A stretch of 64,000 bases of DNA from Caerostris darwini (Eukaryota): contig BPLQ01011166.1 of NCBI GenBank assembly GCA_021605075.1, positions 407,264-471,263 on the forward strand, written 5' to 3'. A model generated the notes under the pieces. The model was not told the origin of the DNA. It saw only the letters and a program-made list of their open reading frames with translations, and did not search any database. Position numbers and translations under genes: made by a program. Each line of letters begins with the position of its first letter. Within the stretch, counting starts at the first letter, position 1. This document shows, in pieces, positions 765 to 62,717 of this stretch.

Positions 765-1789
765 TTAAAATTAATTAAAGTAGATTATATAACTAAAATT
801 AATTCATTTTGGGGTGATTTGTATATCACAACACATTTTTTACAAACTATATGATAAAGAATATAATAGTAGCATTTCTTAACTTCCACAGTACCTTTTT
901 GACAGATGCAATACACTTTTAGAATATTTTATTTGCATAAAATTTTTTTCAAGTATTAATTTCTGTACAGTTTCACTATCATACATTATTTTTTAAAAAT
1001 GTAATAACAATTTTTAATTATTTTTATTTATACTGTCAAAATTTACATAATTATGTAAAAAAGTTATATAGTTTGTTCACAGCATTCAAAATTATTTACT
1101 ATAATTGAATACAATTTTACATTTCTTGTTTCTTACATTTACTGTAAGAAATATGCTTAATGCAAAGAAATTTAATGTGCCAGTTAAAACAATAAAACTA
1201 CAATTCCAGTTTCAAATATGCATTAACTTTATCACTAACTTAATAATTCAACACAATTACTCAAACAATAAAATATTTTCTTTATATAATTTTATATCTT
1301 TTATATCATATACTCTTTATTTTATACATATTTTTTCTAATTTGTTATGAAGGTAATTAAAAGGCAAATAGTGAATTTAACTTTAGGTGAAACTGCATAG
1401 ATTTAACAATTATTTCAATAGTTGCCTTTTAATTTTTGTAACAACAAAGCAAAAAGCTAAATCTAAATTTTCATTAATCAAATGAATGCACTTTTTTTCA
1501 TTTATAACAAAAAATGTTTGTTTGTTATATTTACTAGAACTCAAGAAGGTTTGCTAATTTTAAAGCATCATGTAGCAAAGTTTTATAATTTTAAAATATT
1601 TATTGAGATAAATTTAACTAACAAGTGATATAAAAATTAAAATAAAGAATAGCTAGGTCACCAAAATTAAATGAATAAAGGACATTCTATGTTGCAGTTT
1701 ATGCATTGGTTGCAGCATGGACTGTAGTATATGTATTTTTAATCTACATGATCCAATATTTAAATATTAAGAAACTATAGGAAAAATAC

Positions 1790-5435: not shown

Positions 5436-5839
5436 TTGTTGTTGTTTCTTATCCCACTTGGCTGGCCAAGCCCACGAGCCCATACGTACTCATGATTGAA
5501 GGGGAAGGAAGCAGCTTCTGTTGTGATGGAGCCCACGTAGGTAGAAGTCTGACTTTGGCTCCGTGACGCTCTTACAGTCATAGGAGACCGGGACCTACGG
5601 CTTAAAGTGGATTCCGAACCACTACAACCATCCATGGCTCCGCCGGGATTCGAACCCGAAACCTGTGGCACCGAGCGCCAGAGCGCTAGACACTCGACCA
5701 TTCAGGTCCCAAATTTGTGAATGCCAACGGCACGCGGTATTCCCAAGTGGTCACCCACCCAAGTACTGACCGCGCCCAATGATGCTTGACTTCGGTGATC
5801 TAACGAGAACCGGTATATTCAGCATGGTATGGCCGTTGG
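5436..5839 (-). mobile_element. Composite SINE: 5S-rRNA-like head + tRNA-like module + conserved core + (CAA)n-type tail, flanked by a 12-bp TSD TTTAATAAATAA (5424-5435 / 5840-5851)
   Basis: Near-identical to 10551-10937. Read on the minus strand it goes 5S-like (118 nt), then a tRNA-like segment with GGTTCGAATCC, then the core CCATGGATGTTTGTAGTGGTTCGGAATCCACTTTAAGCCGTAGGTCCCGGTCTCCTATGACTGTAAGAGCGTCACGGAGC. Direct repeats flank the unit. Confidence 0.8.
5722..5839 (-). other. 5S rRNA-like sequence forming the 5' head of the SINE (pol III promoter module; not an independent 5S gene)
   Basis: Reverse complement reads GCCAACGGCCATACCATGCTGAATATACCGGTTCTCGTTAGATCACCGAAGTCAAGCATCATTGGGCGCGGTCAGTACTTGGGTGGGTGACCACTTGGGAATACCGCGTGCCGTTGGC. 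This is collinear with animal 5S rRNA (GCCAACGACCATACCACGCTGAATACATCGG...GGTTAGTACTTAGATGGGAGACCGCCTGGGAATACC...). No T-run terminator lies between it and the tRNA-like part. Confidence 0.75.
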
Positions 5840-6413
5840 TTTAATAAATAAAAAAGGTAAAATGCCATTTTATTAATAAGCCAGTTTAATGTGTAATGCA
5901 ATAAATCTTTTTTCTGGCGTATATCTTCATTATTATTAGAATACAGTTTAATGAAAACTCATTTTTTTTTACTTTTCGTTCAAGCTCTAATCCATCCAAC
6001 AAACTGTACTCTATTACGTCAACAAAATCGATATTTTCAGCTAGACTATTTTCAATTGACAAAATGGCTAAGCTAGAGAGTCGTGCTTGGTTCACAGAGG
6101 ATTTCAGACAATTCTTAATTCGAAAAAAATATCTCTCATGATGCAACAGAAATGCTTAAAGTAAATAAAAAATCTTAAAATTTCTATACAACCTATATAA
6201 TTCCCACGCTCTTGATTACTCAGTATAAATATCCCAGCAGCGGGCAGAAAGTTTTCACATAATGAAAAGCACTAAATGATACTTATTAGCTTTCTTTCAT
6301 ATAAAATGCAATTTTTTTAGAGACATCATGTTTATTTGTGTTTATAATTAGAATTAATATCCATTTTATTTTATTTTTATCCATTTATTACTATCATTTA
6401 CTTATTTTTAATA

Positions 6414-7313
6414 CTACTGTGCCCAAAAACTAAGACCAATCATTTTGTAAGAATAAGACCAAAAACTCTTTATTTATTCTTCCAAATTTATTTCATCGCC
6501 TTCAAAGTAATCCCCTCCAGACATAATGAACGTATGCCAACTTTTTTTAAAACCCTCAATGCATGCTAAAAAGTCATCGGCAAGAATGGCCTTCAAAGCG
6601 CGCGCGATTCACGTTGAATGTCTTCAATCGACTCAAAACGATGTCCCCGGAGTGGTCTTTTGAGTTTAGGGAATAGCTAGAAGTCGTACGGTGTAAATAC
6701 GGTGATTGTGGAACGACATGGGACTCATTTTCGGCGAAAAAGTCACGAAGAATCAATGCAGTGTGAGCTGGCGCATTCAGTTTTTTCGGTACCAATCGAG
6801 ATTTGACGCGTTTGAGGCCCAAAAGGAAATTGACCGATCCTTTTGAAATTCCAACATCATCAGCAAAGTCTCTCATTGTAAATCGACGGTTTGCAAGCAC
6901 CAAATCTTTAATTTTTGGATGTGAGCTTCGTTGGTTGAGGTTGATAGTCGACCAGAGGGCTCTTCGTCTTCAACGCGTTCTCTGCCTTCTTTGAACTGTT
7001 TATACCACTTCTAAACATTTCTTTCCGATATAGGAATGCTCATCGAATGCCCTGCAGCATTCTATATGTTTCCTTAAACAAAATTTAGTGTAATTTCTTT
7101 GCTCAATGAATTCAGACATTTCTAAAATCGCCGGTATCACTTTTAGCTTCTTACAAAGAGAAACGTAACTCAAACACTAATGAATGTTTTGACGGGAAAT
7201 TTTACACAGGTGTCAAAGACAGTGCCAGCAACCTAAAAAAGAAAAAAATTGAAACTCCGTAAGACCCGGGAATTTTAAACTGAAAATTGGTTTTACCTTT
7301 TGGACACATTTAG
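6414..7313 (-). mobile_element. Internally deleted mariner-like element (non-autonomous), TA TSD, about 28-bp terminal inverted repeats CTACTGTG(C/T)CCAAAAA(C/G)TAAGA(C/T)CAAT
   Basis: Minus-strand ORF remnants give a mariner HTH region (…LVLANRRFTMRDFADDVGISKGSVNFLLG…KRVKSRLVPKKL…) joined to a C-terminal end (…SGGDYFEGDEINLEE*). A TTAGGTTGCTGG motif lies 70 bp inside the 5' end. A second copy is at 36911-37734. Confidence 0.7.
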
Positions 7314-7518
7314 TACATATATATACAATGACTACTATTGGATTCTGTAGTTTTCCGAGATATTTAATGTCTTCACCTGGCAAACTTTTTGAACCCCTCA
7401 AAATACGTATTCTTTCAAATTGATCAACAACGACAGAGACAGTCGTATCACAAAATTTTTTTTCTTAGAGGGCGTTCATTTTCATTTGCTTCTCTTGTAA
7501 TACATCTTTCGGTGTCTT

Positions 7519-10550: not shown

Positions 10551-10937
10551 GTTGTTGTTGTTGTTTCTTATCCCACTTGGCTGGCCAAGCCCACATGGAC
10601 TCATGATTGAAGGGGAAGGAAGCAGCTTCTGTTGTGATGGAGCACCCGTAGGTAGAAGCCTGACTTTTGCTCCGTGACGCTCTTACAGTCATAGGAGACC
10701 GGGACCTACGGCTTAAAGTGGATTCCGAACCACTACAAACATCCATGGCACCGCCGGGATTCGAACCCGAAACCTGTGGCACCGAGCGCCAGACACTCGG
10801 CCATTCAGGTCCCAAATTAGCCAACGGCACGCAGTGTTCCCAGGTGGTCACCCACCCAAGTACTGACCGCGCCCAATGATGCTTAACTTCGGTGATCTAA
10901 CGAGAACCGGTATATTCAGCATGGTACGGCCGTTGGC
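10551..10937 (-). mobile_element. Composite 5S-headed SINE, second copy, flanked by a perfect 14-bp TSD TGCTCTGTTGGTAT (10537-10550 / 10938-10951)
   Basis: About 93% identical to 5436-5839 over 5S + tRNA-like + core + (CAA)n tail. The 5S-like part is 10820-10937. The TSD is read directly from the sequence. Confidence 0.85.
10820..10937 (-). other. 5S rRNA-like head of SINE copy 2
   Basis: Reverse complement reads CCAACGGCCGTACCATGCTGAATATACCGGTTCTCGTTAGATCACCGAAGTTAAGCATCATTGGGCGCGGTCAGTACTTGGGTGGGTGACCACCTGGGAACACTGCGTGCCGTTGGC. Confidence 0.75.
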
Positions 10938-11472: not shown

Positions 11473-12053
11473 GTATAGCATAACTATTACTATTATCAGA
11501 TTCTCTTCTTATCTCTCTGTTCTCCTCATCGCCAATATTCATCTCGTTTTCTGATACAGCTGCCTTGTATACGCTACTTTCATTATTTAATGCAGCTATA
11601 AAAACAAATATTATTCAGAACAACTTGAGAGAGAAAATTAATCACGTTTGTTCAACATAATATTATATATAAAGCAATTGTAAATATCATAAAGTAATTC
11701 AGTTGAATGTGATTTTACTTTTTTTAGGGAGAAAAAAATACTTTTTTTTTCCTTTCGAAAGGAATGCTTTTTTTAAATGAAATTCCTGTTTGTTTGAAAA
11801 AAAATTTTTTTTTTTTCACTTCGATCAGTTCATCTTTAAAACCAGTTGATAATTTTCCCCCCTCTCTCTTTCTAAAAGAGTGTTATTCAGTTGCTATTTA
11901 TATAATAACAATGCTATTAAGCATAACAGTGCATTATTTATAACATGCACAATTTATTAATACACTCATGACGATAAATTAAGGATAATTCAGAATCACA
12001 CAGAAATTGAACTCTAAAATAAAAATTTCACCTGTAGAATTATCACACACATC

Positions 12054-13233
12054 TTGAAGAAGAATATGCAAATTACAGGAAGCCACCAGATGGCGCGGAT
12101 AATACGTCACAATGACGAGAGTGTAAGAGAGGGGTATAAAAGGAATGGTGGCAAGGAAGTAAAATTGTTCACAAGCGCTTTAAAAGCCTTTCAGTACAAT
12201 AACCGCATAGTTATGGCACAAAGGAAGCATTTGGATGATTTTTTACGTGGTAGAATTATCGGACGACTGGAATGTGGACGTACCCAGCTGGAAGTATCCG
12301 AGGAACTTGGAATCGCCCAGTGTCATCTCCAGGCTTTGGCAACGATTCCAAGATGATGGTAATGTGAGTAAATGTTACAGCACAGGTCCCCCCTCCCCCG
12401 AGTTACAACGCCGAATGAGGACCGGTATTTAGCAGTTACTGCCAAAAGAAACAGACGGAGCACAGCATCAGACCTGTCTCGTCAGCTACCGGTACGACAG
12501 TTTCAAGGCAGACAGTGTACAGACGCTTAGGGCACATTGATCTGTATGCTCGTAGGCCTGTCAGATGTGTTCCACTTACCCGCAACTCACTGTCGCCTGC
12601 GATTAACCTGGAGTAGAGAGCATGCATTGTGTACACCGCAACAGTGGTCTTGTGTGATGTTTTCCGACGAGTCCAGGTAAGTTTGCAGTCTGATTCTCGC
12701 AAGACTTTGATATGGAGAGCGCCAGGTACCCGTTACCACCAAGAGAACACCATTGAACGACACCGTTACGGTGGTGCAGGATGGCTCGTTTGGGGAGGAA
12801 TTATTCTTGGTTCCAGAATTGACCTGCATGTTCAGAGTGTAACGATGACAGGCCACATCTATCGGGATGTCATTCTGGAACAACATGTACGTTTGTTTCG
12901 GGCGCCATGGGTGCTGAATTTCTGTTTATGGATGACAACGCCCGTCCTCACCGTGCAGACATTGTAGATGAATGCCTTCAATTGGAGGATATCACCCGCA
13001 TGGATTGGCCTGCATACTCACCGGACTTGAATCCAATAGAGCATGTGTGGGATATGCTTGGCCGACGAATTGTAGCCCGTCAACCCCCTCCCACCTGTCA
13101 ACCGCAACTTCGGAGGGCATTGCTTGATGAGTGGTGTAATATTCTCCAAGATCAGATTGATAATTTGATACTCAGCATGCCTAGGCGTTGTAAGGCCTGT
13201 ATTGCATCGTCCGGGAGACATACTCTATATTAA
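12054..13233 (+). pseudogene. Tc1-like (DD34E) transposase pseudogene, frameshifted into at least 4 ORF pieces; TIRs not identified
   Basis: Pieces read …LDDFLRGRIIGRLECGRTQLEVSEELGIAQ… (HTH), …WLVWGGIILGSRIDLHVQ…, and …FMDDNARPHRADIVDECLQLEDITRMDWPAYSPDLNPIEHVWDMLGRRI…SMPRRCKACIASSGRHTLY*. The spacing from the second D to E is 34. Confidence 0.8.
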
Positions 13234-15491: not shown

Positions 15492-16658
15492 CTATTCAAG
15501 GTGGGAAAATTTTTCTTCTTTTAGTTGGGGGCTTTCTAGATGTCGTTTTTCTTCTGGGCATCGTTCTCGATTCGGACCTTTTCCTTTTCTGCGCTGGCTT
15601 AACACAGGAATCTTGTGCCCGCTTTCTTCTCCGAACACTTGATTTTGGGTTCGCTTTGGACGCCTCACGTATCTCAAGTTTCCTTTGCGATATGCAGCGA
15701 CATCAGAAGTAGCCTTCATCAGAGCGTGCTCTTTGAGCAGATACGAAAATGCTCTTAAAACAGCCTGTGTCAGCTCTTCGTCACCCATGTCAGTTTTTTT
15801 TATCTGGCATATTTCTGCAGCAATCTCTGCCAGATGCTCAGCGATCTCGATTAAAAGGAGTCCCAGGTACTTTGGAGGCTTCGAGTCGATGTGGGACAAC
15901 GGATCCACTTCTGAAAAAAGCCTCTTGATGGAAGAGGTGAAACATTCCGCGAATTCCGGTTTAGAAAAACCATCACTCCACAAACTCCTTTTCTTCAGTT
16001 TTAAATCGAGTAAGCTGTTTTCGTATAAAGCTAAATACCTATTCGCTTCGTTGACAGCTGCATTGAAAACGTTCTTTTCAAAATATTGGGGTAAAATGTT
16101 TTTTAAATCCAGAGGTCGGAGCTCTTCGTTTTGACCATAAGTTCCAGCTGCTTTGGCGGTTATTGCCTTTCCGAATTGATATATATATAAAGCTAACGTA
16201 TCCCTGGCTTTTCTGTCAAATATTAAATTCTGTAGGCATTTGGAGCTCAGGTTTGCAACTCCGGATTTGAAAGGGTTAGTGTTTCTTCTAATATCAACAT
16301 CTTGGCGGATTTCTTTTTTCTTTGCTTTCACTTTTAATGCACCATTGCCGCCATACGTCATACAACCACTCTGTAATAAAGCTAATTGCTTAAAAGCTTC
16401 TGATAAAGCGTGCCTTTTCAAACCTCCTTCAAAATATGTGCCAATTACTTTATGAGCGATAAGTTGTATGGTGTGTCCATTCATTCTATTCACAGCATTA
16501 TATTCTTCTTCAATGCGAGTTATTATTGTTGAATTTACTTGGTTCAGCAACTTTGAAAGTAGTTCAAGGAAATTGTTTTCTACTTTTAAAGCCAAGGCCT
16601 GATCACTAATTAAATTCTCTAGGCCTGTTTTGTAACTAATATCTTTGGTGTAAACCAT
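15492..16658 (-). CDS. Intact intronless 388-aa ORF of unknown family, with a basic C-terminal tail (…YRKGNLRYVRRPKRTQNQVFGEESGHKIPVLSQRRKGKGPNRER…)
   Basis: The longest ORF in a 60-kb TE-rich interval. I recognise no DDE, RT, zinc-knuckle or YR motif and no splice signals inside. Codon usage is less AT-skewed than the neighbouring DNA. Confidence 0.5.
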   Translation of the reverse strand: MVYTKDISYKTGLENLISDQALALKVENNFLELLSKLLNQVNSTIITRIEEEYNAVNRMNGHTIQLIAHKVIGTYFEGGLKRHALSEAFKQLALLQSGCMTYGGNGALKVKAKKKEIRQDVDIRRNTNPFKSGVANLSSKCLQNLIFDRKARDTLALYIYQFGKAITAKAAGTYGQNEELRPLDLKNILPQYFEKNVFNAAVNEANRYLALYENSLLDLKLKKRSLWSDGFSKPEFAECFTSSIKRLFSEVDPLSHIDSKPPKYLGLLLIEIAEHLAEIAAEICQIKKTDMGDEELTQAVLRAFSYLLKEHALMKATSDVAAYRKGNLRYVRRPKRTQNQVFGEESGHKIPVLSQRRKGKGPNRERCPEEKRHLESPQLKEEKFSHLE

Positions 16659-35200: not shown

Positions 35201-36910
35201 TCATTTATAATAAAATACTGAAATAAATCAATATATTTAAGGTCAGAAATTAAAACTTGATTTTTTATTTATTTTTTTTTTCATTTTTCATATTTTTAAA
35301 TTATTGCAGCAATTACAAAAATTCCATAATTATTTTTAAAAAGCATACTTTTAAGAGAATAGTTGGTTGCTTGTAAGAAAACCATTTCCATATCTTCCTG
35401 ATGAACAGACATGTAAATTATTAAATGATTCCAATTAAATGGTTGTAATTTGATGCAAGGAAGAATAAAATCACCCTAAAAATATAACATTTATATTGGA
35501 ATATTATTATTCAAGTGATATAAATGAAAGAAAAGAAACAATCTTCCAAAGATTCCTTTCCTTGTACATTTCTATGAATTAATCAAATACATATATTTTT
35601 CATTTAAAATAGTCTCATTAAATTAATGTAACAATTAGCCATCTAAAAACTTAGATTTAACATATAATGATAAAGATGATAAATAAAAGTTAACTAAAAA
35701 AAGCCAAAATAAAAAAAATTTGGATTTCTCATACTGATAATAAGTGAAATAATAACTTTATTTTAATGTGTCAAATATTTATTGATTATTTCATTATAAC
35801 ATATAATAATGATAAAAACTCAATATTAAAATGAACATAAATGATAATTAACATACTGTACCAAATTTGAACTCTTTTGACTTTTTAATGTATGGATATT
35901 TCAAGTAAATAAAAATACAATTTAAAAAAGTAGTTTTATTAAATCTAACTATCAAACAGCAAACAGAATCAAAATGAATACCAAGAAATACGTAGCTCCC
36001 ATGCAAAAAATATCACAGAGACAATAATGCTAAGTTCACTGTTTAAAAGCAAGCACTCAACTAATTATGATTATTGCTATATGGCATACTTTTATTTAAT
36101 TTTGCATGGCTTTTGTGAGAATTTTTTTCAAGACATCCTCTCAAGTTAAGCTCTTAGTTGTTTCTAGAAGCTTCATGAAATCAATCACTAATATGAGTAT
36201 CTCGGGAAACATTGCCAAAATCACAAAATTTGCTGCCAACTTGGAAATACTTTCAGTCTTTTTAGTTAATTAATCAACTATAAACAATTATTTATATATT
36301 TGAAAATTTAATACTACTAAAAATTAATCCAAAATTACTAACCTTTAAGTGAATAAAAAAAGAAAATGGAATTATAAATTCATAACAGGATTCATATCCC
36401 ACAAATGAAATTCTTATGAAAAAAGAAGACATGACAAGATCTAAAAAAGAAAATTTGATATAACATGATAATCTTTAAGAGAAAAACTTGATTAATTTTA
36501 AACAATTTTAACATAAGATGCGGAATTAAAAAAATATCAACAACTGATAAACATAGAATAGTAAAGTATACTTGACTGAAATTTAATGGAACATGGGTCG
36601 CCATGCATGAAAAACATGTAATTCAAAATATTGACAGTATTAGTGGAACAAAAAACAAATCAAATGGAAAACCATTACGAAAAGTAACTATAAATAACAA
36701 AATAATCAATAGATTAGAAGAAAAAATAAAATGATCAAACAAGTATTACAAAAATGATGAAGACTGTAATTTTGATGATGAATAGGAAAACACGGAGAGG
36801 ATATAGAACGAAAAAGATCACTCATTATCCCGGAATCATGACACTCAAACACATGTAAAAGAGATACATAAAGGGAGATAAAATAATTTTTTATTCTGAA
36901 AAATATCTTA

Positions 36911-37734
36911 CTACTGTGTCCAAAAAGTAAGATCAATTTTCAATTTAAAATTACCGGAGCTTATGGAATTTCAATTTTTTTTTCTTTTTTAGGTTGCTGG
37001 AACTGTCCTTGACATCTGTGTGAAATTTGACGTCAAAATATTCATTAGTGTTTGAGTTAAGCTTGGCTTTGTGAAAAGCTAAAACTGATTTCGACGATTT
37101 TTGAAATGTCTGAATTAATTGAGAAAAGAAATTACACTAAATTTTGTTTGAGGAAAAGTATAGAATGTTGCAGGGCGTTCGGTGAGCATTCCTATATCAG
37201 AAAGAAATGTTTAGAAGTGGTATAAACAGTTCAAAGAAGGCAGAGAACGCGTTGAAGACGAAGAGCCCTCTGGTCGACCATCAACCTCAATCGACGAAGC
37301 TCACATCCAAAAAATTAAAGATTTGATGCTTGCAAATCGTCGATTTACAATTAGAAACCTTGCTGCTGATGTTGGAATTTCAAAAAGATCGGTCTTTTTC
37401 GTCAAAATTGAAACCCATAGCATTTCAATCCCCATATCATCAATTGAAACCCATATCTTCAATCGACTCAAATCGGTGGGACCGGAGTGGTAAAAAGACC
37501 ACTCCAGTCCCACCATTTTGAGTCGATTGAAGATTCAATGTGAATCCCCGCACGCTTTGAAGGCCATCCCTGCCGACGACTTTTTAGCGTGCATTGAGGA
37601 TTGGAAAAAAAGTTGGCATAAGTGCATTGTGTCCGGAGGGGATTACTTTGAAGGCGATGAAATAAATTTGGAAGAATAAATGAAGAGTTTTTTAAAAAAA
37701 AAAAGTAATTGGTCTTACTTTTTGGGTACAATAG
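36911..37734 (+). mobile_element. Internally deleted mariner-like element, second copy, TA TSD (36909-10 / 37735-36), with a perfect palindromic hairpin at the deletion junction (37456-37515)
   Basis: Termini are CTACTGTGTCCAAAAAGTAAGATCAATT … AATTGGTCTTACTTTTTGGGTACAATAG. Coding remnants read …LCCRAFGEHSYIRKKC…VEDEEPSGRPSTSIDEAHIQKIKDLMLANRRFTIRNLAADVGISK… and …SGGDYFEGDEINLEE*. The junction carries gactcaaatcggtgggaccggagtggtaaaaagaccactccagtcccaccattttgagtc. Confidence 0.7.
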
Positions 37735-46640: not shown

Positions 46641-47898
46641 ATGAGACAATAAGTTTTTTTCTTATTATTTTCTTTTTACCTGTATGTGTCTTGCACTGTT
46701 TTGATGCCGTAAGAATTTGTCATTTTCTCTTACCATAGGAAATAATGATAAAAAAAACAAGTATTATAAAAAAAAAATTTAAAGTCAATTCCTACTTTTT
46801 TTTCACTATATTGCAGAAAGTCCTTTATAAATACAAAGGACTACACAAAGTTCGTAACCTTCCTCAACTTAAAGATTTCATTAAATACACTTCTCATAAA
46901 TTCTTCAATAGCCTCAATTTTCATGAGAATACTTCAATTCAGAATGTAGATTACTACTTTCAACACTGTAATATTAAAAAACGTTATCAAATTTCATTTG
47001 GTATTTGTTTTAATTTGTATTTATAAAAATTTTACTTGATATTTGTATAGATTTTAATTTCAGATTTAAAAAAAAAAATTTTATTTGTATTTATATTTTC
47101 TGGTTAATAAATTCTGGTCAATTTTTCATGCTCTGTCACTTTAAACCTACAATTACAGGATATGAAGCCCTTTGTGGCTGGCATACTCCAGGATAATTAA
47201 TTAACTACCTGCATCTGGTCCTTATTTGGCAAGTCAGTAAAGGTCCTAACGACTTTACCGAACCCCAACTATAGAAATAGCCTTAAGGAATTCATATCTC
47301 CATGAAGATTGTAATTAACAATCTTAAGCAAGTGCACAGCAGGAAAGCAATGTCTCCTTCTATTCAACACCATGATTTCAGAGATACCACTACAAAAAAG
47401 CATTTAGTACGAAGTAGTCAAAACTTTTCGCTAGTATAGATTGAGGATTCAATTCACACCGAAAATAAATTTGAAAATTTAGTAGAAAAAAAATTAACAT
47501 GGATGAGAAAATCCCTCCCAGACCACTCGTCAGATTACCGCCCATGATGATCCATCAAAATGGCCATCTCAAAGAAACCCGGAAGCTTATCGAGGGAGAA
47601 TTAAAGAAAATTGGGTCTAAGCTTTCCCGTTATCATACGAAATGTTTCCCTGAAACAGAGTCAAGAAATAAAGCTTTGATCACCTTCCTGAAAAAGAAGA
47701 AAATCTATTATTTCCACATCACGCCTAAATATAATAGATTCAATTAAAGCAGTTTTCAAAGCACTGAATGAGCACTGTTGATATCGAAGATTCATTCTAC
47801 TCCCTGGAATTCATACAAAGTTCGGCCAACTTAAAAACTCATTTAAATCTGGCAACTCATTTTCTCAAGGAGTGACAAAGTCAAAGGTAGTTTTGGTT

Positions 47899-48109
47899 TG
47901 TAGCGACACCTATTGATGTAAAATGGAATACAAATTGAACGACTTCTACTTTCACTGTTAAAAAGGGAATTTTCCCGCTAGAATAAAAATAGAACGTAGT
48001 AAGCGTTCGAAGTAGAATAAACATGTCGTAATTGTGGAAATTGATTATCGTCTTTTATTTTGCCGTCTGGATTTTAATAACACTACGCAACCTTTACAAT
48101 ACCGCCACA
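47899..48109 (+). repeat. 5' LTR (211 bp, TG…CA)
   Basis: Identical to 52302-52512. Confidence 0.9.
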
Positions 48110-48350
48110 TACTTGGTGACCCGTGAATTGTTTGCAAACAGTGAATTATTTACAAAATGAATGAATCTAATGAATCGGCGAAAAAAGATGAAGTAGCGCG
48201 GGTAAGTGTCAAAATACCTCCTTTTGGGCTGAAAAACCAGAAATATGGTTCTTTCAAGTTGAAGCACAGTTTTCAATTTGTGGAATAACAGCCGAGGATA
48301 CAAAATTCAACTACTTAGTTTCGCAATTAGAACCGAAGTTTGTTGAAAGT

Positions 48351-49571
48351 TTGTGGGACATTATAAGTGATGATAATAGAACAAAATATACCGCTGCTAA
48401 AACACGATTGCTGAATACTTTTAAAGAAAGCGAAAATAAGCGTCTTCAGAGACTGCTGACAGGACTTGACTTGGGAGATCTTAAACCTAGTCAACTTTTA
48501 CAAAAAATGAGAAATCTGGCTACTGATGGAATTACTGACAAGATACTAACAACATTATTTCTACAAAAAATGCCTGATTCTGTAAGGAATATTTTACTAG
48601 TCAGTGATGAAAAAATTGAAAAACTGGCATTAATGGCGGATCGTATTCTTGAAATGCAACCAAAACAAGAACTTTACCGCGTAAGCAATGTTTCATCAGG
48701 ATCAGATGCCATGACTGAGTTACAACAACAAATTACATCTTTGGAAAATAAACTTGAAAAACTGAGTGTCACAAGGAACTCTCGTTCCCAAACAACAAAT
48801 AGAGGTCGATACTCTTCTTCTCATCGAAGTCAGTCTCGCAATCACTCTTATAATCCTTCAGGCAAATACTGTTATTACCATTTCCGTTTTCGAGAAAAAT
48901 GTTTTCCTGATAAATGCAAAGCTCCATGTGCATGGCAAAAACAATCCTTCGGAAAATCAGAATCAGCAACAGAATTAACGGCAGACTCTGCTGCTGAAAA
49001 TACAAAACATTGCCGTCAATACCGTCTATTTGTCAACGACAAAAAAACGGGTTTACGCTTTTTGGTTGATAGTGGAGCGGACGTAAGTCTTATTCCTTAT
49101 ACTTCTAAACACAAATTTATTAGTGACTATAAATTATATGCTGCAAATAATACTGCAATCGATACTTTTGGTACAGAAATTTTAAATCTTGATCTAGGTT
49201 TACGCCGAGAATTTCAATTCCCATTTATTGTGGCCAAAATTAGTAAACCTATACTAGGTGCAGATTTTTTAAATAAGTTCAATTTATTAATTGATATAAA
49301 GCATAAAAGATTAATTGATGGTGTAACTAACCTTGCAGTTTATGGTAACATTGCACCCATCTCTATTAATGAAAGTGTAAATACAACGAGCAGCTTATGT
49401 AAATATTCTGATTTATTTTCTATGTATCCCAATATAACAAAACCAAATTTTCTTGTTTCAAATGTTAAACATAATGTAAAACATCATATTATAACTAAAG
49501 GACAACCTATAAATTGTAAAGCAAGACAATTAGATCCAAAACGGTTGGAAATAGCTAAAAAGAGAATTTAA
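48351..49571 (+). CDS. gag-protease polyprotein (406 aa): Cys/His knuckle CYYHFRFREKCFPDKCKAPC, aspartic protease LVDSGADVS
   Basis: Intact ORF. The D-S-G-A protease motif is read directly. The C-terminus …HHIITKGQPINCKARQLDPKRLEIAKK runs on, after a +1 shift, into RT (EFKYMLDNNIISPSSSEWASP…). Confidence 0.85.
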   Translation: MWDIISDDNRTKYTAAKTRLLNTFKESENKRLQRLLTGLDLGDLKPSQLLQKMRNLATDGITDKILTTLFLQKMPDSVRNILLVSDEKIEKLALMADRILEMQPKQELYRVSNVSSGSDAMTELQQQITSLENKLEKLSVTRNSRSQTTNRGRYSSSHRSQSRNHSYNPSGKYCYYHFRFREKCFPDKCKAPCAWQKQSFGKSESATELTADSAAENTKHCRQYRLFVNDKKTGLRFLVDSGADVSLIPYTSKHKFISDYKLYAANNTAIDTFGTEILNLDLGLRREFQFPFIVAKISKPILGADFLNKFNLLIDIKHKRLIDGVTNLAVYGNIAPISINESVNTTSSLCKYSDLFSMYPNITKPNFLVSNVKHNVKHHIITKGQPINCKARQLDPKRLEIAKKRI

Positions 49572-49575
49572 ATAT

Positions 49576-50973
49576 ATGCTAGACAATAACATTATTAGTC
49601 CATCTAGCTCAGAATGGGCAAGTCCATTACATATAGTAACAAAGAAAGATGGTTCTTTTCGTCCATGTGGTGATTATAGAAGATTGAATGATTTAACTAT
49701 ACCTGATAGATATAACATACCTCGAATCCAGGATTTTCAACATATTTTAACTAATAAAACTATATTTTCTAAAATTGACATTACTAAAGCATATTATCAC
49801 ATTCCTGTAGCAGATGAAGATAAGGCAAAAACTGCCATCATCACACCTTTTGGACTTTATCAATTCAATGTGATGAGTTTTGGTCTCAAAAATGCCCCTG
49901 CAACATTTCAAAGGTTTATAAATGAAGTTCTTTATGGTCTAGACTTTGTGTTTCCATACTTAGATGATGTGTTGATCGCCTCTTCTTGCGAGGAAGAACA
50001 TCGTTCACATCTTAAAATAGTTTTCCAGCGTTTAGATAAATATGGTCTACGGATTAATATTAGCAAATCAGTTTTGGGAGTACCTGTAATAGATTTTTAG
50101 GCTATCAAATATCTGCGGAAGGTTCACTACCTCAACCTCAAAAGATCAAAGCTATCATAGAATATCCATTGCCAGAAACTATGCACGAATTACGTTCCTT
50201 CTTAGGAATGATCAATTTTTATCGTAATTATATAAATAATGCCGCAAAAACTCAAGCCCCTCTACATGAACTTTTGAAAGGATCTACAAAAAAAAGATCG
50301 ACGCAAAATACCATGGACCGATGAAACTAGACAAAGTTTTGAAAAATGCAAACAAGATGTTGCTCAAATAGCGTTAATGGCATATCCCAACTCGGATTAC
50401 CCTCTGGCACTTCTCACAGATGCATCTGATTGGGCTATTGGATCAGTTATTCAACAAAAAGAACCAAATGGATGGAAGCCAATTGCATTTTTCTAAAAAA
50501 CTTAATGATGCTCAGAAAAATTACAGCGTTTATGACCGTGAACTTTTGGGTATATATTTATCCATTAAACATTTTAAGCATTTACTTGAAGGTCGAGATT
50601 TTGATATTTATACTGATCATAAACCGTTAATATTTGCTTTTAAGCAAAACAATGATAAAGCCTCCCCAGACAACTCAGACATCTACAATATATCTCACAA
50701 TTCTCTACTAACCTATACCATATCAGTGGTCGAAACAATGTGGTAGCAGACAGACTGTCTAGAATTGAGGACATCGATTCACCTATTGTCGATTATGACT
50801 TGATAGCTGATGCACAAATTAATGATGATGAACTGCAACAATTGAAATTACATTCCAAATCATTACATTTTAAAGAACACCAATTGCCATCAGGAAAGCT
50901 CTTGTATTGTGATACCTCTACTTCCAGTATCAGACCATTCATACCAAAAAAATTTTCGAATGACAATATTTAA
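49576..50973 (+). pseudogene. pol RT-RNaseH region, recognisable but split over 5 frames by frameshifts located in homopolymer runs
   Basis: RT reads …FSKIDITKAYYHIPV…TPFGLYQFNVMSFGLKNAPATFQRF…YLDDVLIAS…GVPVIDF|LGYQISAEG…RSFLGMINFYRNYI… and RH reads …LTDASDWAIGSVIQQ…PIAFF|SKKLNDAQKNYSVYDRELLGIYLSIKHFKHLLEGRDFDIYTDHKPL…DKAS|PRQLRHLQYISQFSTNLYHISGRNNVVADRLSRIE…. Shifts fall at T5 (about 50095), A8 (about 50285), T5/A6 (about 50485), C5 (about 50660) and A7T4 (about 50945). Confidence 0.8.
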
Positions 50974-52111
50974 TACAATTCACAGTTTATCTCATTCTGG
51001 AATTCGAACTACTGTAAAAGAAATAACTAAAAGATTCATTTGGCCAAATATGAAAAAAGATGTTAAACAGTGGACTCAAACTTGCATCAACTGTCAGAAA
51101 AATAAAATAACTAAACATACAAAATCAGAATATTCACAATTTCAAGCACCAGATGAGAGATTTAGTGTCGTTCATATAGATTTAATTGGACCTTATTCAC
51201 CTTCTAATGGATACACATACTGCTTGACGTGTATTGATCGGTTTACCTCTTGGATGGAAGTGGTACCGTTATCAAATATCACTGCAGAAAGTATAGCAAA
51301 AGCTTTTTATGAGCATTGGATTACCCGATTTGGTGTACCTACTTGTGTTATTACTGACAAAGGCACTCAATTTATTTCAGAACTATTTCGAAGTTTAGCT
51401 GCGCTATGTGGTGTTAAAGTAAACCATACGTGTTCTTACCATCCTCAGAGTAATGGAAAAGTTGAACGTCTTCACCGTACCTTGAAAACAGCTATTAGAT
51501 GTCATAACAACGTTCGTTGGACGGACACATTACCAACGGTTCTTATGGGTTTGCGAGCTGCTCTACATGAGGACTCTAAGTATACAATAGCTGAAATGGT
51601 TTATGGCAAAACTATTAAACTACCAGGCGAATTCTTTGAAGAATCCAGATTGCCAATATCTGATGATAATTTCGTAAGTAATCTCAGAAAACAGATGGCT
51701 GACTTAAAACCATACCAATCCAAAAACAAATGTAAACAAAAGATCTTCATTCCAAAAGATTTGTACACATGCTCACATGTGTTTCTGCGAATTGACAGAG
51801 TCAAAAAACCATTAGAACCCCCATATGAAGGACCCTATTTGGTATTGCAAAGATCCCCGAAAAACTTTCTTCTATCAATTAAAAATAAACAAGTTAATAT
51901 TTCAGTGGATAGATTAAAACCGGCATATGTGTTACAACCTAATGAACTTCTGAATCCAACATTATCAAATGATCATACATCTCTGCCGAGTGAACAAACA
52001 TTTATACCAAGTCAGCAAGTTGCACAACCAAATACAACAACACGTTGTGGAAGACAAGTAAAACTTCCTGTTCGTTTCAATGACATTATTGACTTTTCTT
52101 CAAATTTATAA
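50909..52111 (+). CDS. Integrase (HHCC zinc finger + DDE core), intact from the shift point
   Basis: HSLSHSGIRTT…CINCQKNK; D in HIDLIGP, D in CVITDKGTQF, E in SNGKVERLHRTLK; GPYSPSNGYTYCLTCIDRFTSWMEVVPL and SYHPQSNGKVER are typical gypsy integrase strings. Confidence 0.85.
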   Translation: MIPLLPVSDHSYQKNFRMTIFNTIHSLSHSGIRTTVKEITKRFIWPNMKKDVKQWTQTCINCQKNKITKHTKSEYSQFQAPDERFSVVHIDLIGPYSPSNGYTYCLTCIDRFTSWMEVVPLSNITAESIAKAFYEHWITRFGVPTCVITDKGTQFISELFRSLAALCGVKVNHTCSYHPQSNGKVERLHRTLKTAIRCHNNVRWTDTLPTVLMGLRAALHEDSKYTIAEMVYGKTIKLPGEFFEESRLPISDDNFVSNLRKQMADLKPYQSKNKCKQKIFIPKDLYTCSHVFLRIDRVKKPLEPPYEGPYLVLQRSPKNFLLSIKNKQVNISVDRLKPAYVLQPNELLNPTLSNDHTSLPSEQTFIPSQQVAQPNTTTRCGRQVKLPVRFNDIIDFSSNL

Positions 52112-52301
52112 TTCATCCATTCCATTTTAAAAATTAATTTGATTTATTGTATGTAAATGTTTATATGTAATTGTATTTGTAATTATTTTGTGCAAATTTA
52201 AATTTGTATCAATGTGTATTTGTTCGCTATTATTTGTATAGATATATTAATTCGTCTACCATTTTCAAAGTAACGTAACTTTGTTACTGGTAGGGGAGTG
52301 A

Positions 52302-52512
52302 TGTAGCGACACCTATTGATGTAAAATGGAATACAAATTGAACGACTTCTACTTTCACTGTTAAAAAGGGAATTTTCCCGCTAGAATAAAAATAGAACGT
52401 AGTAAGCGTTCGAAGTAGAATAAACATGTCGTAATTGTGGAAATTGATTATCGTCTTTTATTTTGCCGTCTGGATTTTAATAACACTACGCAACCTTTAC
52501 AATACCGCCACA
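52302..52512 (+). repeat. 3' LTR (211 bp), preceded by the PPT
   Basis: Identical to the 5' LTR. Confidence 0.9.
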
Positions 52513-53123
52513 GGTTGAAGGAGTACCTAGGGAATGAGTGCCCCTATATCTCCTATTGCTTAAAATGAAAATAAATTACTTAAAAGGGTTATGCATGTGG
52601 AATTAAATATTTAAAGGAATTAATAGGTTAGAGCCATAGCTCAGGATAGAGCCATAGCTCAGGATTAGATGAAATAATTATCATGGTAAAAGAGGAAGTT
52701 TAAATGATCAGAAATTTTTTTTAAAAGATGTCCTTTGCTCAATGTGCAGAATTAATGGGGCTAGTATTCACTAGTCGTTCCAAAAATTCAGATAGGTAGG
52801 AAAAGGGTTAAGAAAAGGGGGTGTCAAAGAGTTTCTTAAGGACACAGTGTCCTGGTGAACGTGTACTGCTCGAATGTGAAGAGTTCGAGTTCGCAGAGCG
52901 TTTTACTCGTGAACAAGAATGCTGCTCTCTTTCTATTGGCTGGTAAGATCCGGGGAGAAAGAAGAGGCGTGGTTAGTAGTATGTGAAGTGCGGAGGTCGC
53001 GTAGCGCCATCTGTTGGAAAAGTAGGATCTAGTAATGTAAATAAAGCTGTAATGTAAAATGAAGAAACGGAAAGAAATTTTGAAAACAAAACGTGAGCGT
53101 TAAGGAATGAGATCGAGAATGAA

Positions 53124-55503
53124 TTATCCTGGGTCGAAGTTAATTCTTTTCGCTGTTGGAAAAGAGATGAACATAGCGTTATTAATGGCACGGGGCCTTT
53201 TCTTTGCTTTCGGGTGTTTGTAATCGTAGATGGGTAAATTATTGATGAGCGGATTGTTAGATCTATTGGTGTTGTTAATGAAATCGGTTGCGATTCGCTT
53301 AGAGTAGTCCAGGATAGATTCTAGGTTGAGATTTTTGTGGAGAAATTCTCTGCTGAGGTGAAAAGGAGCGTTTGTAATTTTGAGCAATTGTTGATTTTGG
53401 AAAACCTGCAATTTCCGTAAAGTGGAGATGGGTGAGGAGATCCAAACAGGAGCCGCATAGGTGATAATGGGTCTGATGATGGAAGTATATAGAGTGAGTT
53501 TACTTCTGATAGATAATTTACTAGTGAAGTTGATCAGTGGGTTGATTTGGTGGCTGGCAATATTTGCCTTTCTGATAGTATCCTTTAGGTGAGGATTAAA
53601 ATTTAGTTTCGATTCTAGAATGACCCCAAGGTACTTGTATTCATTTACAAACGGTACTGGTTCGTTGAAGATCTTGAGCTGTGGTGGGTTTGATCGTCGT
53701 TTTTGACGAGAGAAAATTAGGCAGGCACACTTTGAGGCATTGACCTTCACTTTCCATCGTGAGAGCCATGTCTCCAGGTGTCCTATGTAATTTTGCAGAT
53801 TAGTAATGATCTCAATGTTATCCTTGCTTCGAGTAATAATGGCGGTATCATCCGCGTACATGGCCATCTGAGTATTGGTCGTGCGTGGGAAATCGTTGAC
53901 ATAAAGGTTGAAGAGTAATGGTGATAGAAGTGAACCCTGCGGGAGGCCGCTGGCGATTGCTCGTGGTGTTGATGTTTGGTTGTTTACCTTCACTTTGAAG
54001 TTCCGGTGTGAGAGAAAAGAGTTAATTAAGAGTGCAATAGGTGCTGGAAAGTCGAGTTGCATGAGTTTGAAAATTAGACCGGTATGCCAAATCTTATCGA
54101 ACGCTTTCGCGATGTCTAAGAAGAGTATACCAGTATTAATTTTCTTGGAAAAACCGTCGTGTATAAGTTCAGAAACTCTGAAAAGTTGGTGTGTAGTGCT
54201 GAGTGATTTCCTGAAGCCAAATTGCTCAGGAATTATGATGTTGTTTTGGGTGCAGAAATTATTAATACGTAATAAAATGGCGTGTTCATAGATTTTACTG
54301 ATGCTGCTAAGTAATGAAATAGGTCTATAGTTTTGTGGCCGATTTATATCTGTACCACATTTGTGTATGGGTGTTATTGTGGCTGTCTTCCAGCAGCTAG
54401 GAAAATGGTAGAAGCTAAGAAAGTGATTTAAAATGATGTTTAGCCATATGATGTATTTAAATGGAAGATGCATGATCATGGCTTTGTTTATGTTGTCTTC
54501 ACCCGGAGCTTTTTTAATTTTTAGTGAGTGTATAAATTCGAATGTCTCCGAGGCGGTGATAGCATTAATGTAATTTACATGAGGTTCGTGTAGATAATGA
54601 TGAGCAGCAGAAATGATTAACGAGTTGGTGGAGACGTGGTTGTCTGTTAAGTTGGGAGAAAATTGAGCTTGCCAGCAGTCTGCAATTAATTCGGCTTTTT
54701 CTTCTGGAGAGATTACCGTTGATCCATTATCAGATATTAGTGGGGGAATCTGAGTGTTGTTTTTACGGAGTGCTGAAACTTTCCTCCAGAGTGAGGTGCT
54801 ATTACTAGAGAAATCATTGGTGATGTTGGCCCAGCTATTGCTTTTGGGCAGATTTATTTTCTTCTTGATGATGTTGTTTAATTTATTGATGCAATTTTTG
54901 AGAGCCGGATCTTTAGATCTTTGCCAGGCTTTCCTGATCTTATTTCTGTTTTTGATGATCGTTTTGATTTCCTTTGGAATCTTTTTCCCCGGATGGTCAA
55001 AGTTTCTTTTGGAGCTTTTGTCTAGAGCTTCTAGCATAGTGTTTGTGAGGTTATTTAGTGCGTGTTCCGCATCGTGGGCTGAGTTTATTTTGCTGATAGG
55101 AGGCATGGAGTGTTGAAGTGTGTAACTGTAGTTGTGCCAGTTTGTGGTTTTACGTTGGGTGGAAGTAGCAAGATTACTATTGAGATTTAAGGTAATAATG
55201 ACTGGCATGTGGTCAGAGTTTAACTCGTGTATCACTTCCATGGAGCTGCTATATGGGATGTTTCTAAGAAGTGCGAAGTCTATGGTGGTGTTCCCATACC
55301 GGGCCTGAGGGCTGAAATGGGTGGGGGTGTGTGGTGCAATTATTTTTATATCATTCCTGGAGTTAAAGAATTTATTGAATTTAATTCCACGTAGGGTGTG
55401 TTTTGTATTGTTCCAGGATGTGTGTGAGGCGTTAAAATCTCCTGCGAGAATGGTGTTTTTATTTGCCTCAATTAATTTCTTTAGACAGGAGTATGAAAAT
55501 ATT
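53124..55503 (-). mobile_element. Non-LTR retrotransposon (APE-endonuclease LINE) ORF2, 793 codons open, 5'-truncated inside the endonuclease domain; the 3' UTR probably continues toward about 52517, where the LTR element is inserted
   Basis: EN C-terminal half reads …ILAGDFNASHTSWN…SDHMPVII. RT reads …PGEDNI…FDKIWHTGLIFKL…LPQGSLLSPLLFNLYVND…MYADDTAII…YLGVILESKL…. The frame is open from 55503 (preceded by TGA) to the stop at 53124. No RNase H or CCHC motif was seen. Confidence 0.8.
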
Positions 55504-55846
55504 TGATCTCAAGAAGCTTCTCTACTTAAGCTTATTTTTTCCAAGATGATCAATCAGAGCAGAAAAATTTAATTACATCCATGGTGCAGCCCTATGCGTT
55601 TTTTTGCAACTACTCCATCATGAAGTAGTAACTGCAGAAACTAAACCGAGATACCTCAAATGAGGGGTTTTCCGCTTTTTTAAAAAATGCCCCACAGCTG
55701 GACTTATCGCCTTCTTTGCTATCGAATCTATCTCGAAATTTTCCTCAAATCATAATCGTGTAATTCTTAATTTCAGCATTAATTATTTCTCTTAAACTTA
55801 ATTGCTCTCAATTCACTAATTGAATAATTTTTTGAATACTCTAAGC

Positions 55847-59390: not shown

Positions 59391-59759
59391 ATGCCTGCTA
59401 TACCGAGCGGTAAAGCTATGAAAAAAGTCGATAAGGCACCTCGACCTGGGGACAAAAAGCTTAAAAGGAAAAAGAAGAGGAAGGAAAGTTTCAGTATTTA
59501 CATCTACAAGGTTCTGAAGCAAGTTCATCCCGATACCGGTGTTTCTAGTAAAGCTATGTCTATTATGAACAGCTTTGTGAACGATATTTTCGAACGTCTT
59601 GCTGCCGAATCCTCTCGTCTTGCTCATTACAACAAGCGTTCCACTATTACAAGCCGAGAAATACAAACAGCCGTTCGTTTGCTGTTGCCCGGAGAACTTG
59701 CGAAACATGCCGTTTCAGAAGGAACCAAAGCCGTGACCAAATACACCAGCTCCAAGTAA
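59391..59759 (+). CDS. H2B: Histone H2B (122 aa), canonical
   Basis: [122 protein letters not shown] is essentially the invariant H2B histone-fold and C-terminus. Confidence 0.95.
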
Positions 59760-60785: not shown

Positions 60786-61457
60786 GAATGTAAAAACAGT
60801 TATTTATTAAACATAAATTTTAGGGATACTAAGATTTATGCAGTTTCGATAAAACATGTGTAACATTAATAGAAAATGTGTTTTGTTATAGAAACTGGGT
60901 GTTTCTAATTCGTATCTTCTCGGTTCTTTTTTTGATGTTGCTATAAATGTGTTGTGTCCTTTATATAGTATGTGTTTTATTACATAATAAATTTTCGTTA
61001 AAGACAACTCTAAAAATGGCTACTGAATATTTTTACTAAATTTAGTATCGGACTAATTGGTAACAGTCATATTTGATCAAATTATTTTCCCTCAAATTAA
61101 TTTAAAACAATTTTTATTCTATTAAAATATTTTTACATGGACATTTAGAAGGGTTTATGTGTAAAAACATATTCTTAAAATTTGTGCTTTTTTACAAAAG
61201 CTTAATTTTTAAATGTGAATAAAAAGACATGAAAATCTAAAAATGAAAAAAAATGCATACACAATAATAGAAACATAAATATGGATAAAAGAAAAATAAA
61301 TGGTGCCCAATAAATATCCCAATCACGCATGAGTGATAAAAGAGTTGGGAACTGAATTGTAAGTGTAAAATCTTAATATACAATAAAATAGTATACATTA
61401 AATTGATAAATTCAGATAGTAATTTATAATTCCTACTGCGGTATATATATATATATA

Positions 61458-62675
61458 CACTGAAGTGACAAAAGTCATGGGATAGCAATATGCAAATTTT
61501 CAGATGGCAGTAGCATCGCGTAGAACGGGTATAAATGCGCAGTGCTTTCGCAGAGCTTTCATTTCTGTTCAAGTTATTCATGTGAAGAGGTTTTGACGTG
61601 ATCATGACCGCACGACGGGAATTAACAGACTTGGAACGCGGAATGTTAGTTGGAGCTAGACGCGTGGGTCATGCCATTTCGGAAATCGTTAGGGAATTCA
61701 ACATTCCCAGATCCACTGTGTCAAGAGTGTGCCGAGGGTATGAAATTTCAGGCATAACATCCCACCATGGACAGCGCAGGGGTCGACCGCCTGCACTTAA
61801 CGACCGAGACCGGCGACGTCTGCAAAGAGTCGTAAATTCTAACAGACAAGCAACACTGCGTCAAATAACCGCAGAAATCAATGTGGGACGTACAAGGGAC
61901 TTGTCTGTTAGAACTGTGCGGAGAAATTTGGCTTTCTTGGGCTATTCCAGCAGAAGACTGACTCGAGTGCCTTTACTGACAGAACGACATCGCTTGCAGC
62001 GACTCTCGTGGGCACGTGAGCATATCGGTTGGTCCCTAGATGAATGGAAAACCGTGGCCTGGTCCGATGAGTCACGATTTCAGTTGGTAAGAGCTGATGG
62101 TAGGGTTCGAGTGTGGCGCAGACCCCACGAAGCCATGGACCCAAACTGTCAGCAAGGCACTGTTCAAGCTGGTGGTGGCTCCGTAATGGTGTGGGCTGTT
62201 TTTTCAGGGCATGGACTTGGTCCTCTGGTGCGACTGGACCGAACATTGACTGGAAATGCTTATGTTCAGCTACTTGGAGATCACTTGCAGCCATTCATGG
62301 ACTTCATGTACCCAAACAACGATGGGATTTTTATGGATGACAATGCGCCATGTCACCGGGCCACAACTGTTCGCGATTGGTTTGAAGAACATTCTGGACA
62401 ATTCCAACGAATGATCTGGCCACCTAGATCGCCCGACATGAATCCCATCGAGCATTTATGGGACATCATCGAGAGGTCTGTTCGTGCCCAAAATCCTGCA
62501 CCATCAACGCTTTCACAATTATGGACGTCTATCGAGACAGCATGGCTCAATATTCCTGCAGAAGACTTCCAACGACTTGTTGAGGCCTTGCCACTTCGAG
62601 TTGCTGCACTTCGCCGGGCGAAAGGAGGGCCGACACGATATTAAGAGGTATCCCATGACTTTTGTCACTTCAGTG
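61458..62675 (+). mobile_element. Complete Tc1-like DNA transposon (1218 bp): perfect 27-bp TIRs CACTGAAGTGACAAAAGTCATGGGATA, TA TSD inside a (TA)n microsatellite, TATAAAT box at 61530-36
   Basis: 5' TIR 61458-61484 and 3' TIR 62649-62675 are exact reverse complements. TA flanks both ends. Confidence 0.9.
61598..62644 (+). CDS. Tc1-family DDE transposase, 348 aa, uninterrupted
   Basis: HTH reads …LTDLERGMLVGARRVGHAISEIVREFNIPRSTVSRV…. Catalytic residues: D in WSDESRF, D in FMDDNAPCH, E in SPDMNPIEHLWD (36 residues between the second D and E by my count, against 34 in the pseudogene at 12054). GGGSVMVWA and …LPLRVAALRRAKGGPTRY* are also present. Confidence 0.9.
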   Translation: MIMTARRELTDLERGMLVGARRVGHAISEIVREFNIPRSTVSRVCRGYEISGITSHHGQRRGRPPALNDRDRRRLQRVVNSNRQATLRQITAEINVGRTRDLSVRTVRRNLAFLGYSSRRLTRVPLLTERHRLQRLSWAREHIGWSLDEWKTVAWSDESRFQLVRADGRVRVWRRPHEAMDPNCQQGTVQAGGGSVMVWAVFSGHGLGPLVRLDRTLTGNAYVQLLGDHLQPFMDFMYPNNDGIFMDDNAPCHRATTVRDWFEEHSGQFQRMIWPPRSPDMNPIEHLWDIIERSVRAQNPAPSTLSQLWTSIETAWLNIPAEDFQRLVEALPLRVAALRRAKGGPTRY

Positions 62676-62717
62676 TATATATATATATATATAGTTGGAT
62701 ATTATTCCATATAATTA

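Follow-up and report, generated by a model that had tools for sequence, protein, structure and literature searches.

A full-length CsRn1-clade gypsy element with identical long terminal repeats and a gag-pol frame broken at mononucleotide runs in the Caerostris darwini genome assembly

An LTR retrotransposon of the CsRn1 clade

The 64,000-nucleotide stretch of Caerostris darwini DNA analyzed here (contig BPLQ01011166.1, positions 407,264 to 471,263; hereafter the window, whose own coordinates are used throughout) contains, between positions 47899 and 52512, a genuine full-length insertion of a Ty3/gypsy retrotransposon of the CsRn1 clade, the gag-pol reading frame of which is broken seven times in the assembled sequence. 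In a repeat search of the window, the two long terminal repeats (LTRs) of the element are identical at 211 of 211 positions, although zero differences over this length bound the per-site divergence only to less than about 0.7% at 95%. The LTRs have TG...CA ends, and the tetranucleotide GGTT flanks the element on both sides. As far as can be read from the sequence, all the parts of an autonomous element are present, namely the LTRs, a primer-binding site (PBS), one frame spanning Gag, a protease (PR), a reverse transcriptase (RT), an RNase H (RH) and an integrase (IN), and a polypurine tract (PPT). These features are arranged as follows.

47895-47898 (+): target-site duplication (TSD) GGTT, 5′ copy, by direct reading the same as 52513-52516
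47899-48109 (+): 5′ LTR, 211 bp, TGTAG...CCACA, 100% identical to the 3′ LTR
48114-48125 (+): PBS TGGTGACCCGTG, tRNA-Trp type, 4 nucleotides (nt) past the LTR
48157-52111 (+): gag-pol coding region, 1318 codons once the seven frame changes are removed, stop codon at 52109-52111
48214-48461 (+): Gag N-terminal domain, Pfam DUF7041 (E=2e-23, residues 20-102)
48870-48929 (+): Gag Cys-His signature CYYH-x11-C-x3-C, CHCC type (alignment A1, columns 301-325)
49062-49088 (+): protease active site LVDSGADVS, with DSG at amino acids (aa) 305-307, conserved in alignment A1
49639-50111 (+): reverse transcriptase, RVT_1 (Pfam E=1.6e-33, aa 495-652), with YLDD at 49957-49968
50314-50703 (+): RNase H, matched by RT_RNaseH_2 and RT_RNaseH (E=4e-31 and 3.8e-29 in Pfam) and possessing the DAS, E and D motifs
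50941-51109 (+): integrase HHCC zinc domain (Pfam Integrase_H2C2, E=9.7e-18, aa 930-985)
51161-51445 (+): integrase DDE core, rve (Pfam E=1e-10, aa 1003-1097)
51824-51844 (+): GPY/F motif at the integrase C-terminus, YEGPYLV (aa 1224-1230)
52289-52301 (+): PPT GGTAGGGGAGTGA, adjoining the 3′ LTR
52302-52512 (+): 3′ LTR, 211 bp, 100% identical to the 5′ LTR
52513-52516 (+): TSD GGTT, 3′ copy, by direct reading

Once the frame is repaired, Pfam places RT_RNaseH at aa 720-850 of the polyprotein and gives the pol order PR-RT-RNase H-IN, with integrase last. The integrase residues H943, H947, C977, C980, D1009, D1068 and E1104 are invariant in alignment A1. Between the stop codon and the 3′ LTR lie 190 nt, and there are no additional Pfam domains, neither a chromodomain nor env. 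A preliminary description of this DNA, made from its letters, had reported a gypsy-type LTR retrotransposon with LTRs identical over 211 positions, a GGTT duplication, and two open reading frames (ORFs) of 406 and 400 aa. The LTR identity and the duplication are borne out by the repeat search and by direct reading of the sequence, both ORFs are present (48351-49571 and 50909-52111), and the gypsy-type assignment agrees with the gag-PR-RT-RH-IN order and with the Pfam matches to RVT_1, RT_RNaseH, Integrase_H2C2 and rve. From the known mechanism of this family, the 5′ LTR would drive transcription, one polyprotein would be translated and then cleaved by the element's own protease, tRNA-Trp would prime reverse transcription, and the 4-bp duplication would be made on integration.

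Based on similarity and shared features, rather than on a phylogeny against other gypsy clades, the element can be placed in the CsRn1 clade, a finer assignment than gypsy-type that includes CsRn1 of Clonorchis sinensis, PwRn1 of Paragonimus westermani and AgCR of Anopheles gambiae. CsRn1 itself (Q9BM81, P0077) is 42% identical to the spider element over 98% of the polyprotein (E=0), Gag DUF7041 included. Published hallmarks of the clade are a CHCC Gag signature (CX2HX9CX3C) in place of CCHC, a PBS with the consensus TGGTGA(G/C)CCCG(T/A) that is complementary to the 3′ end of tRNA-Trp, a 4-bp TSD, a GPY/F motif, the lack of a chromodomain and env, and, in CsRn1 and PwRn1, a fused gag-pol (PMC2582038). 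With its clade the spider element shares the DUF7041 domain at the Gag N-terminus, a 4-bp TSD, TGT...ACA LTR ends, GPY/F in the integrase, and the absence of a chromodomain and of env; after repair, it also has the single fused gag-pol ORF of CsRn1 and PwRn1. Its Gag signature has the C, H, C and C residues and its PBS is of tRNA-Trp form, but each agrees with the published motif only in part: the Gag spacing is CX2HX11CX3C (aa 239-258), two residues longer than the published X9, and the PBS, TGGTGACCCGTG, has CCC where the consensus has (G/C)CCC and is one C shorter. In addition, its LTRs are short (211 bp), its host is a spider, and its assembled ORF is broken seven times.

Both departures from the published motifs recur among the relatives of the element. 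The X11 spacing is common to P0001 and P0006, while P0027 also has the two extra residues but lacks the last Cys. The PBS of a relative from Araneus ventricosus, TGGTGACCCGT (L002, 2974-2985), has the same form as that of the C. darwini element, and a polypurine tract, GGTGGGGGAGTAA, is found at the same place. An eighth lesion in the form of a C lost from the PBS was considered and rejected, given that the A. ventricosus copy carries the same TGGTGACCCGT. No tRNA gene was found in the window.

The best database relatives are arachnid elements at 55-66% protein identity that keep the domains in the same order. The closest, on Logan contig SRR11192618_8548 (P0001/L001; 56%), has a single uninterrupted ORF of 1308 codons. 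This relative, A. ventricosus BGPR01000762.1 (P0027/L002) and Trichonephila clavipes BMAU01007022.1 (P0044/L003) resemble the C. darwini element in the form of the PBS and PPT, in the spacing of the Gag motif and in domain order. The three represent different families, and the search yielded no copy above 66% identity. Searches of the protein collection reached at most 66% identity with the full polyprotein and at most 62% with the integrase, with no C. darwini relative above 62%; exact look-ups of the retrotransposon ORFs of the window in the same collection returned no match, and comparison of the window with itself revealed neither another copy nor a solo LTR of the element. The element adds one more record to the CsRn1 clade of gypsy elements, here from an araneid spider, and is otherwise ordinary.

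Seven frame changes at mononucleotide runs

Frame changes were located with a three-frame translation map and by reconstruction of the coding region, and gaps were counted in the alignment to relatives. The total is seven, all of them at mononucleotide runs, of which six are changes of ±1 nt and one is a change of -2 nt; three are additions of a base and four are losses. In the following lines a slash marks the break in the peptide.

48222-48225 (+): frame change 1, short by 1 nt; T4, whereas PPF/WAE (conserved PPFW) needs T5
49557-49561 (+): frame change 2, one surplus nt, at the PR-RT junction; within or beside A5, IAK/REF
50094-50098 (+): frame change 3, short by 1 nt; T5, whereas IDF/LGY needs T6
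50288-50295 (+): frame change 4, one surplus nt; A8, whereas TKK/DRR needs A7
50488-50500 (+): frame change 5, short by 2 nt; T5-CT-A6, AFF/SKK, either T7 to T5 or TCTC to TC
50664-50667 (+): frame change 6, short by 1 nt; C4, whereas KAS/PRQ needs TCN CCN
50946-50956 (+): frame change 7, one surplus nt; A7T4, PKK/FRM

Nearly all relatives are continuous at these positions. The site is free of gaps in 12 of 15 relatives with gag coverage for the first change, in 93 of 93 for the third, and in 89 of 91 for the seventh, and the PR-RT junction is both continuous and gap-free in all 91 relatives that span it. At the fourth change, alignment A1 runs without a gap against P0001 or P0027; at the fifth, the spacing of AF[FY]SKKL is kept in 86 of 87 relatives; and the peptide at the sixth, KQNNDKASPRQLRHLQ, is identical in two relatives. 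When the eight frame segments are joined, they yield a gag-PR-RT-RH-IN polyprotein of 1318 aa that contains no stop codon, has intact catalytic residues in PR, RT, RH and IN, and is colinear with its single-ORF relatives at every junction. The observed damage is confined to seven changes of 1-2 nt at runs, in both directions, with no stop, larger indel or lost motif.

Runs of at least four identical bases hold only 11.3% of the coding bases; on that figure, seven positions drawn at random would all fall on runs, with ±1 base allowed, with a probability of about 3e-6. The coincidence of seven out of seven lesions with runs is far beyond chance.

The preliminary description had placed about six frame changes between its 406-aa and 400-aa ORFs, with gag-PR open. 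All six were recovered, but one in gag had been missed. The real gag start is the ATG at 48157, and its first 23 codons lie in a different frame from the remainder, the change falling in the T4 run at 48222-48225; the 406-aa ORF exists, starting at a mechanical TTG, but gag is not fully open. Other details call for amendment. A C5 run near 50660 had been named as one site, and there is indeed a frame change in the C run at 50664-50667, but the run is C4, with C5 its inferred intact state. Near 50485, the change at T5/A6 is present but is a loss of two nucleotides, not ±1, as indicated by the spacing kept in the relatives. The assertion that every change coincides with a mononucleotide run holds for all seven, with the reservation that the extra base at 49557-49561 lies within the 4-nt sequence AAGA, and only one of its three possible placements falls inside the A run.

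Origin of the frame changes

The combination of identical LTRs and a riddled pol is best explained by sequencing chemistry. The C. darwini assembly was built from Oxford Nanopore Technologies (ONT) R9.4.1 reads, base-called with Guppy 3.2.10, assembled with Flye 2.7 and subjected to three iterations of Racon, after which came three rounds of Pilon with 10x/Illumina reads and a quickmerge with a Supernova assembly (genome paper preprint). Racon-polished nanopore assemblies are known to carry frame-breaking homopolymer insertions and deletions, in both directions, at runs of at least four (PMC7500977), and the chemistry and tools behind such residual indels in Racon/Pilon assemblies are the same as those used here. 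With some, though far from full, confidence, we infer that the seven breaks are most likely uncorrected nanopore homopolymer-length errors that do not exist in the spider's DNA and that the element is probably intact in reality. Residual errors of the nanopore consensus (ONT R9.4.1, Flye, Racon) would create the breaks; short-read polishing with Pilon probably failed at a young, multi-copy and perhaps hemizygous repeat, while it would have corrected the unique sequence around the element. Homopolymer error in the assembly had been put forward in the preliminary description, and is, provisionally, the best-supported reading in view of the ONT assembly, the frameshift-only damage and a recurrence of the pattern in T. 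clavipes.

The T. clavipes assembly, according to the literature, comes from the same laboratory and a similar pipeline (Flye 2.7 with Pilon). One of its copies, L003 (BMAU01007022.1, 4262-9273), has LTRs identical at 354 of 354 positions and five frame changes without a stop, and another, L006 (BMAU01019659.1, 4467-10573), has LTRs identical at 446 of 446 positions and at least three frame changes; in both, the breaks lie at other positions than in the C. darwini element. That two further families show like damage in copies with identical LTRs, and do so in a different assembly made with ONT and Pilon, points to a technical cause. L005, also from T. clavipes, has 10 LTR mismatches (3.3% diverged), and its RT-IN stretch aligned in one frame over 877 aa. 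The frameshift load does not rise with the age of the LTRs, which fits errors concentrated in the youngest and least uniquely mappable copies. Indels between L005 and L006 are a mixture of homopolymer and non-homopolymer changes and are uninformative on cause. A search for Logan proteins that would allow Illumina and nanopore versions of the T. clavipes copies to be compared found none more than 90% identical to them.

The T. clavipes copies also exhibit two further features. The gene models annotated over L003 and L006 do not translate directly from the DNA, and are presumably bridged by predicted introns. In L004, L005 and L006, which belong to one family, the frame steps down by one twice between gag, PR and RT; the boundaries of the high-scoring segment pairs vary (query aa 311-318, 371-373 and 402-407), and a -1 overlap as in Anopheles AgCR is a candidate explanation.

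Several observations weigh against an origin in the assembly. The errors would have to be confined to a single young element among clean neighbors: a long interspersed nuclear element (LINE; 794 codons), a Tc1-like transposase (348 codons), a histone H2B ORF and two host ORFs are all unbroken. Together these ORFs hold 124 runs of at least four with 0 breaks, versus 7 breaks in the 100 runs of the element, so that a local failure of polishing must be assumed. Error spread uniformly across the window was considered and is disfavored by the same clean ORFs, although the LINE taken alone does not differ significantly from the element when run length is allowed for (P ~0.1). Illumina coverage of approximately 95x should fix most homopolymers, repeats included. 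Several of the affected runs are short, with intact lengths of 4-5, and runs of this size are not classic nanopore trouble spots. Among 253 alignment columns at least 90% conserved across 93 relatives, the element differs at 12, compared with a median of about 7 for the relatives; at columns at least 97% conserved it differs at 2 of 130, and this load lies within the range of the relatives and so does not separate the hypotheses. Finally, a Sanger-sequenced lambda clone of PwRn1 has LTRs that are 99.7% identical around an interior that indels or substitutions have corrupted (PMC2582038), which demonstrates that real defective young copies exist.

The PwRn1 clone serves, at the same time, as the precedent within the clade for a possible but doubtful alternative, akin to the propagation in trans named in the preliminary description, in which the frameshifts are real and pre-date the insertion, a coding-dead copy having been transcribed, packaged and reverse-transcribed by the proteins of an intact relative. 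Identical LTRs around a broken interior are the expected outcome of such mobilization in trans, the unbroken neighboring ORFs indicate that the assembly is not generally poor, and the number of mismatches at conserved columns is slightly above that of the median relative. Against it stands the mutational background of the window, where old repeat pairs differ by ~174 substitutions versus ~16 indels, only 4 of the 16 indels being 1 nt long and several 4-8 nt. (An inverted pair of mariner-like fragments, 6826-7322 and 36903-37400, 89% identical, is part of this background.) A lineage free of constraint should, like these repeats, gain about ten substitutions per indel, so that seven indels imply ~70 substitutions. 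Because 5.2% of substitutions in the repaired ORF create stops, ~3.6 nonsense codons would be expected, together with damaged catalytic motifs and some larger indels; none is seen, and the probability of finding 0 stops is 0.026. The frameshift pattern shared with the LTR-identical T. clavipes copies also speaks for a technical cause rather than for mobilization in trans.

A variant of this scenario, which we regard as unlikely, would combine real lesions produced only by slippage with the recent mobilization in trans of a dead copy; taken together with the similar look of the LTR-identical Trichonephila copies, it would suggest that araneid spiders harbor defective gypsy families that parasitize intact relatives and that have an unusually slippage-biased mutation spectrum. 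Conceivably, such a bias could arise from, for example, the element's own reverse transcriptase. Were the lesions real, this insertion would cleanly exemplify how a dead element is mobilized in trans.

It is improbable that genuine frameshifts accumulated once the element had inserted, through ordinary neutral decay or slippage during replication. Mononucleotide runs do naturally give rise to ±1 indels by slippage, and the identity of 211-bp LTRs is a weak clock. However, at the background ratio seven indels imply ~1.8% divergence and about 7-7.5 differences between the LTRs, where 0 are seen (P(0) ~6e-4). The A. ventricosus copy L002, an older relative, decays as natural decay predicts, with 5 LTR substitutions, 1 frameshift and 1 stop. 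On the strength of these sequence comparisons, natural decay is disfavored for the C. darwini element.

We find very little room for the remaining proposal, raised in the preliminary description, that the PR-RT junction at 49557-49561 is a programmed +1 shift of the Ty3 type, or for rescue of the runs by transcriptional or ribosomal slippage, and the former was rejected, since no conserved shift site was found: the 91 relatives all read through the junction, and the nearest, L001, is one ORF. An A5 run would let lysine tRNA re-pair in the +1 frame, and Ty3 of Saccharomyces likewise has a +1 frame change inside a gypsy-type element. The Ty3 shift, however, is located at the GAG3-POL3 overlap, upstream of the protease, on the specific heptamer GCG-AGU-U, from which the junction sequence differs; the C. 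darwini change falls between PR and RT, within a run of A in lysine codons, and is absent from all relatives. L003 also has a break near this junction, but it is six codons upstream and shifts the frame the opposite way, so that the site is not conserved. Nor could programming account for all six of the other breaks of this kind, and seven successive low-efficiency events would give essentially no polyprotein. Some Anopheles elements of the CsRn1 clade do use overlapping ORFs, but with -1 shifts, at the gag-pol boundary (PMC2582038).

If the assembled run lengths are wrong, the C. darwini element would probably be autonomous. More broadly, caution would be warranted with short-read-polished nanopore assemblies, which may present the youngest transposon copies as broken while their LTRs are still identical. 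False breaks of this type would distort estimates of transposon activity and counts of intact versus defective copies, and in gene models they may be bridged by spurious introns.

Other features of the window

Approximately 600 bp downstream of the LTR element is the LINE mentioned above, a non-LTR retrotransposon at 53127-55508 (-) that is 5′-truncated and retains an endonuclease tail and RVT_1, with 794 open codons and no frame break. The Tc1-like transposon occupies 61442-62691 and encodes an intact transposase of 348 aa with HTH_Tnp_Tc3_2 and DDE_3 domains. Its inverted terminal repeats, CACTGAAGTGACAAAAGTCATGGGATA, are perfect, and the surrounding (TA)n microsatellite inflates the repeat match to 43 bp. 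Decayed remains of another Tc1-like transposase, with a DDE_3 match, lie split across frames at 12018-13230 (+); one of the breaks, near 12900-12910 in TTTCGGGCGCC, is outside any run of at least four.

Among the putative host sequences, the ORF at 15495-16658 (-) is an exact match to C. darwini GIY56193.1 (CDAR_166922), and the H2B ORF at 59391-59756 (+) is an exact match to C. darwini GIY56199.1 (histone H2B). H2B stands alone, as H2A, H3 and H4 were not found in the window. A 426-aa ORF at 1767-3047 (-), the exact sequence of which has no match in the protein collection, matches DUF4764 weakly (E=1.7e-7) toward its C-terminus and probably represents a single exon of a host gene. Full-length genes for 5S rRNA occur twice, at 5722-5840 and 10819-10937 (-), scoring 102 bits each and lying 5.1 kb apart; their surroundings are ~91% identical over ~400 bp and differ by indels of 6-8 nt.

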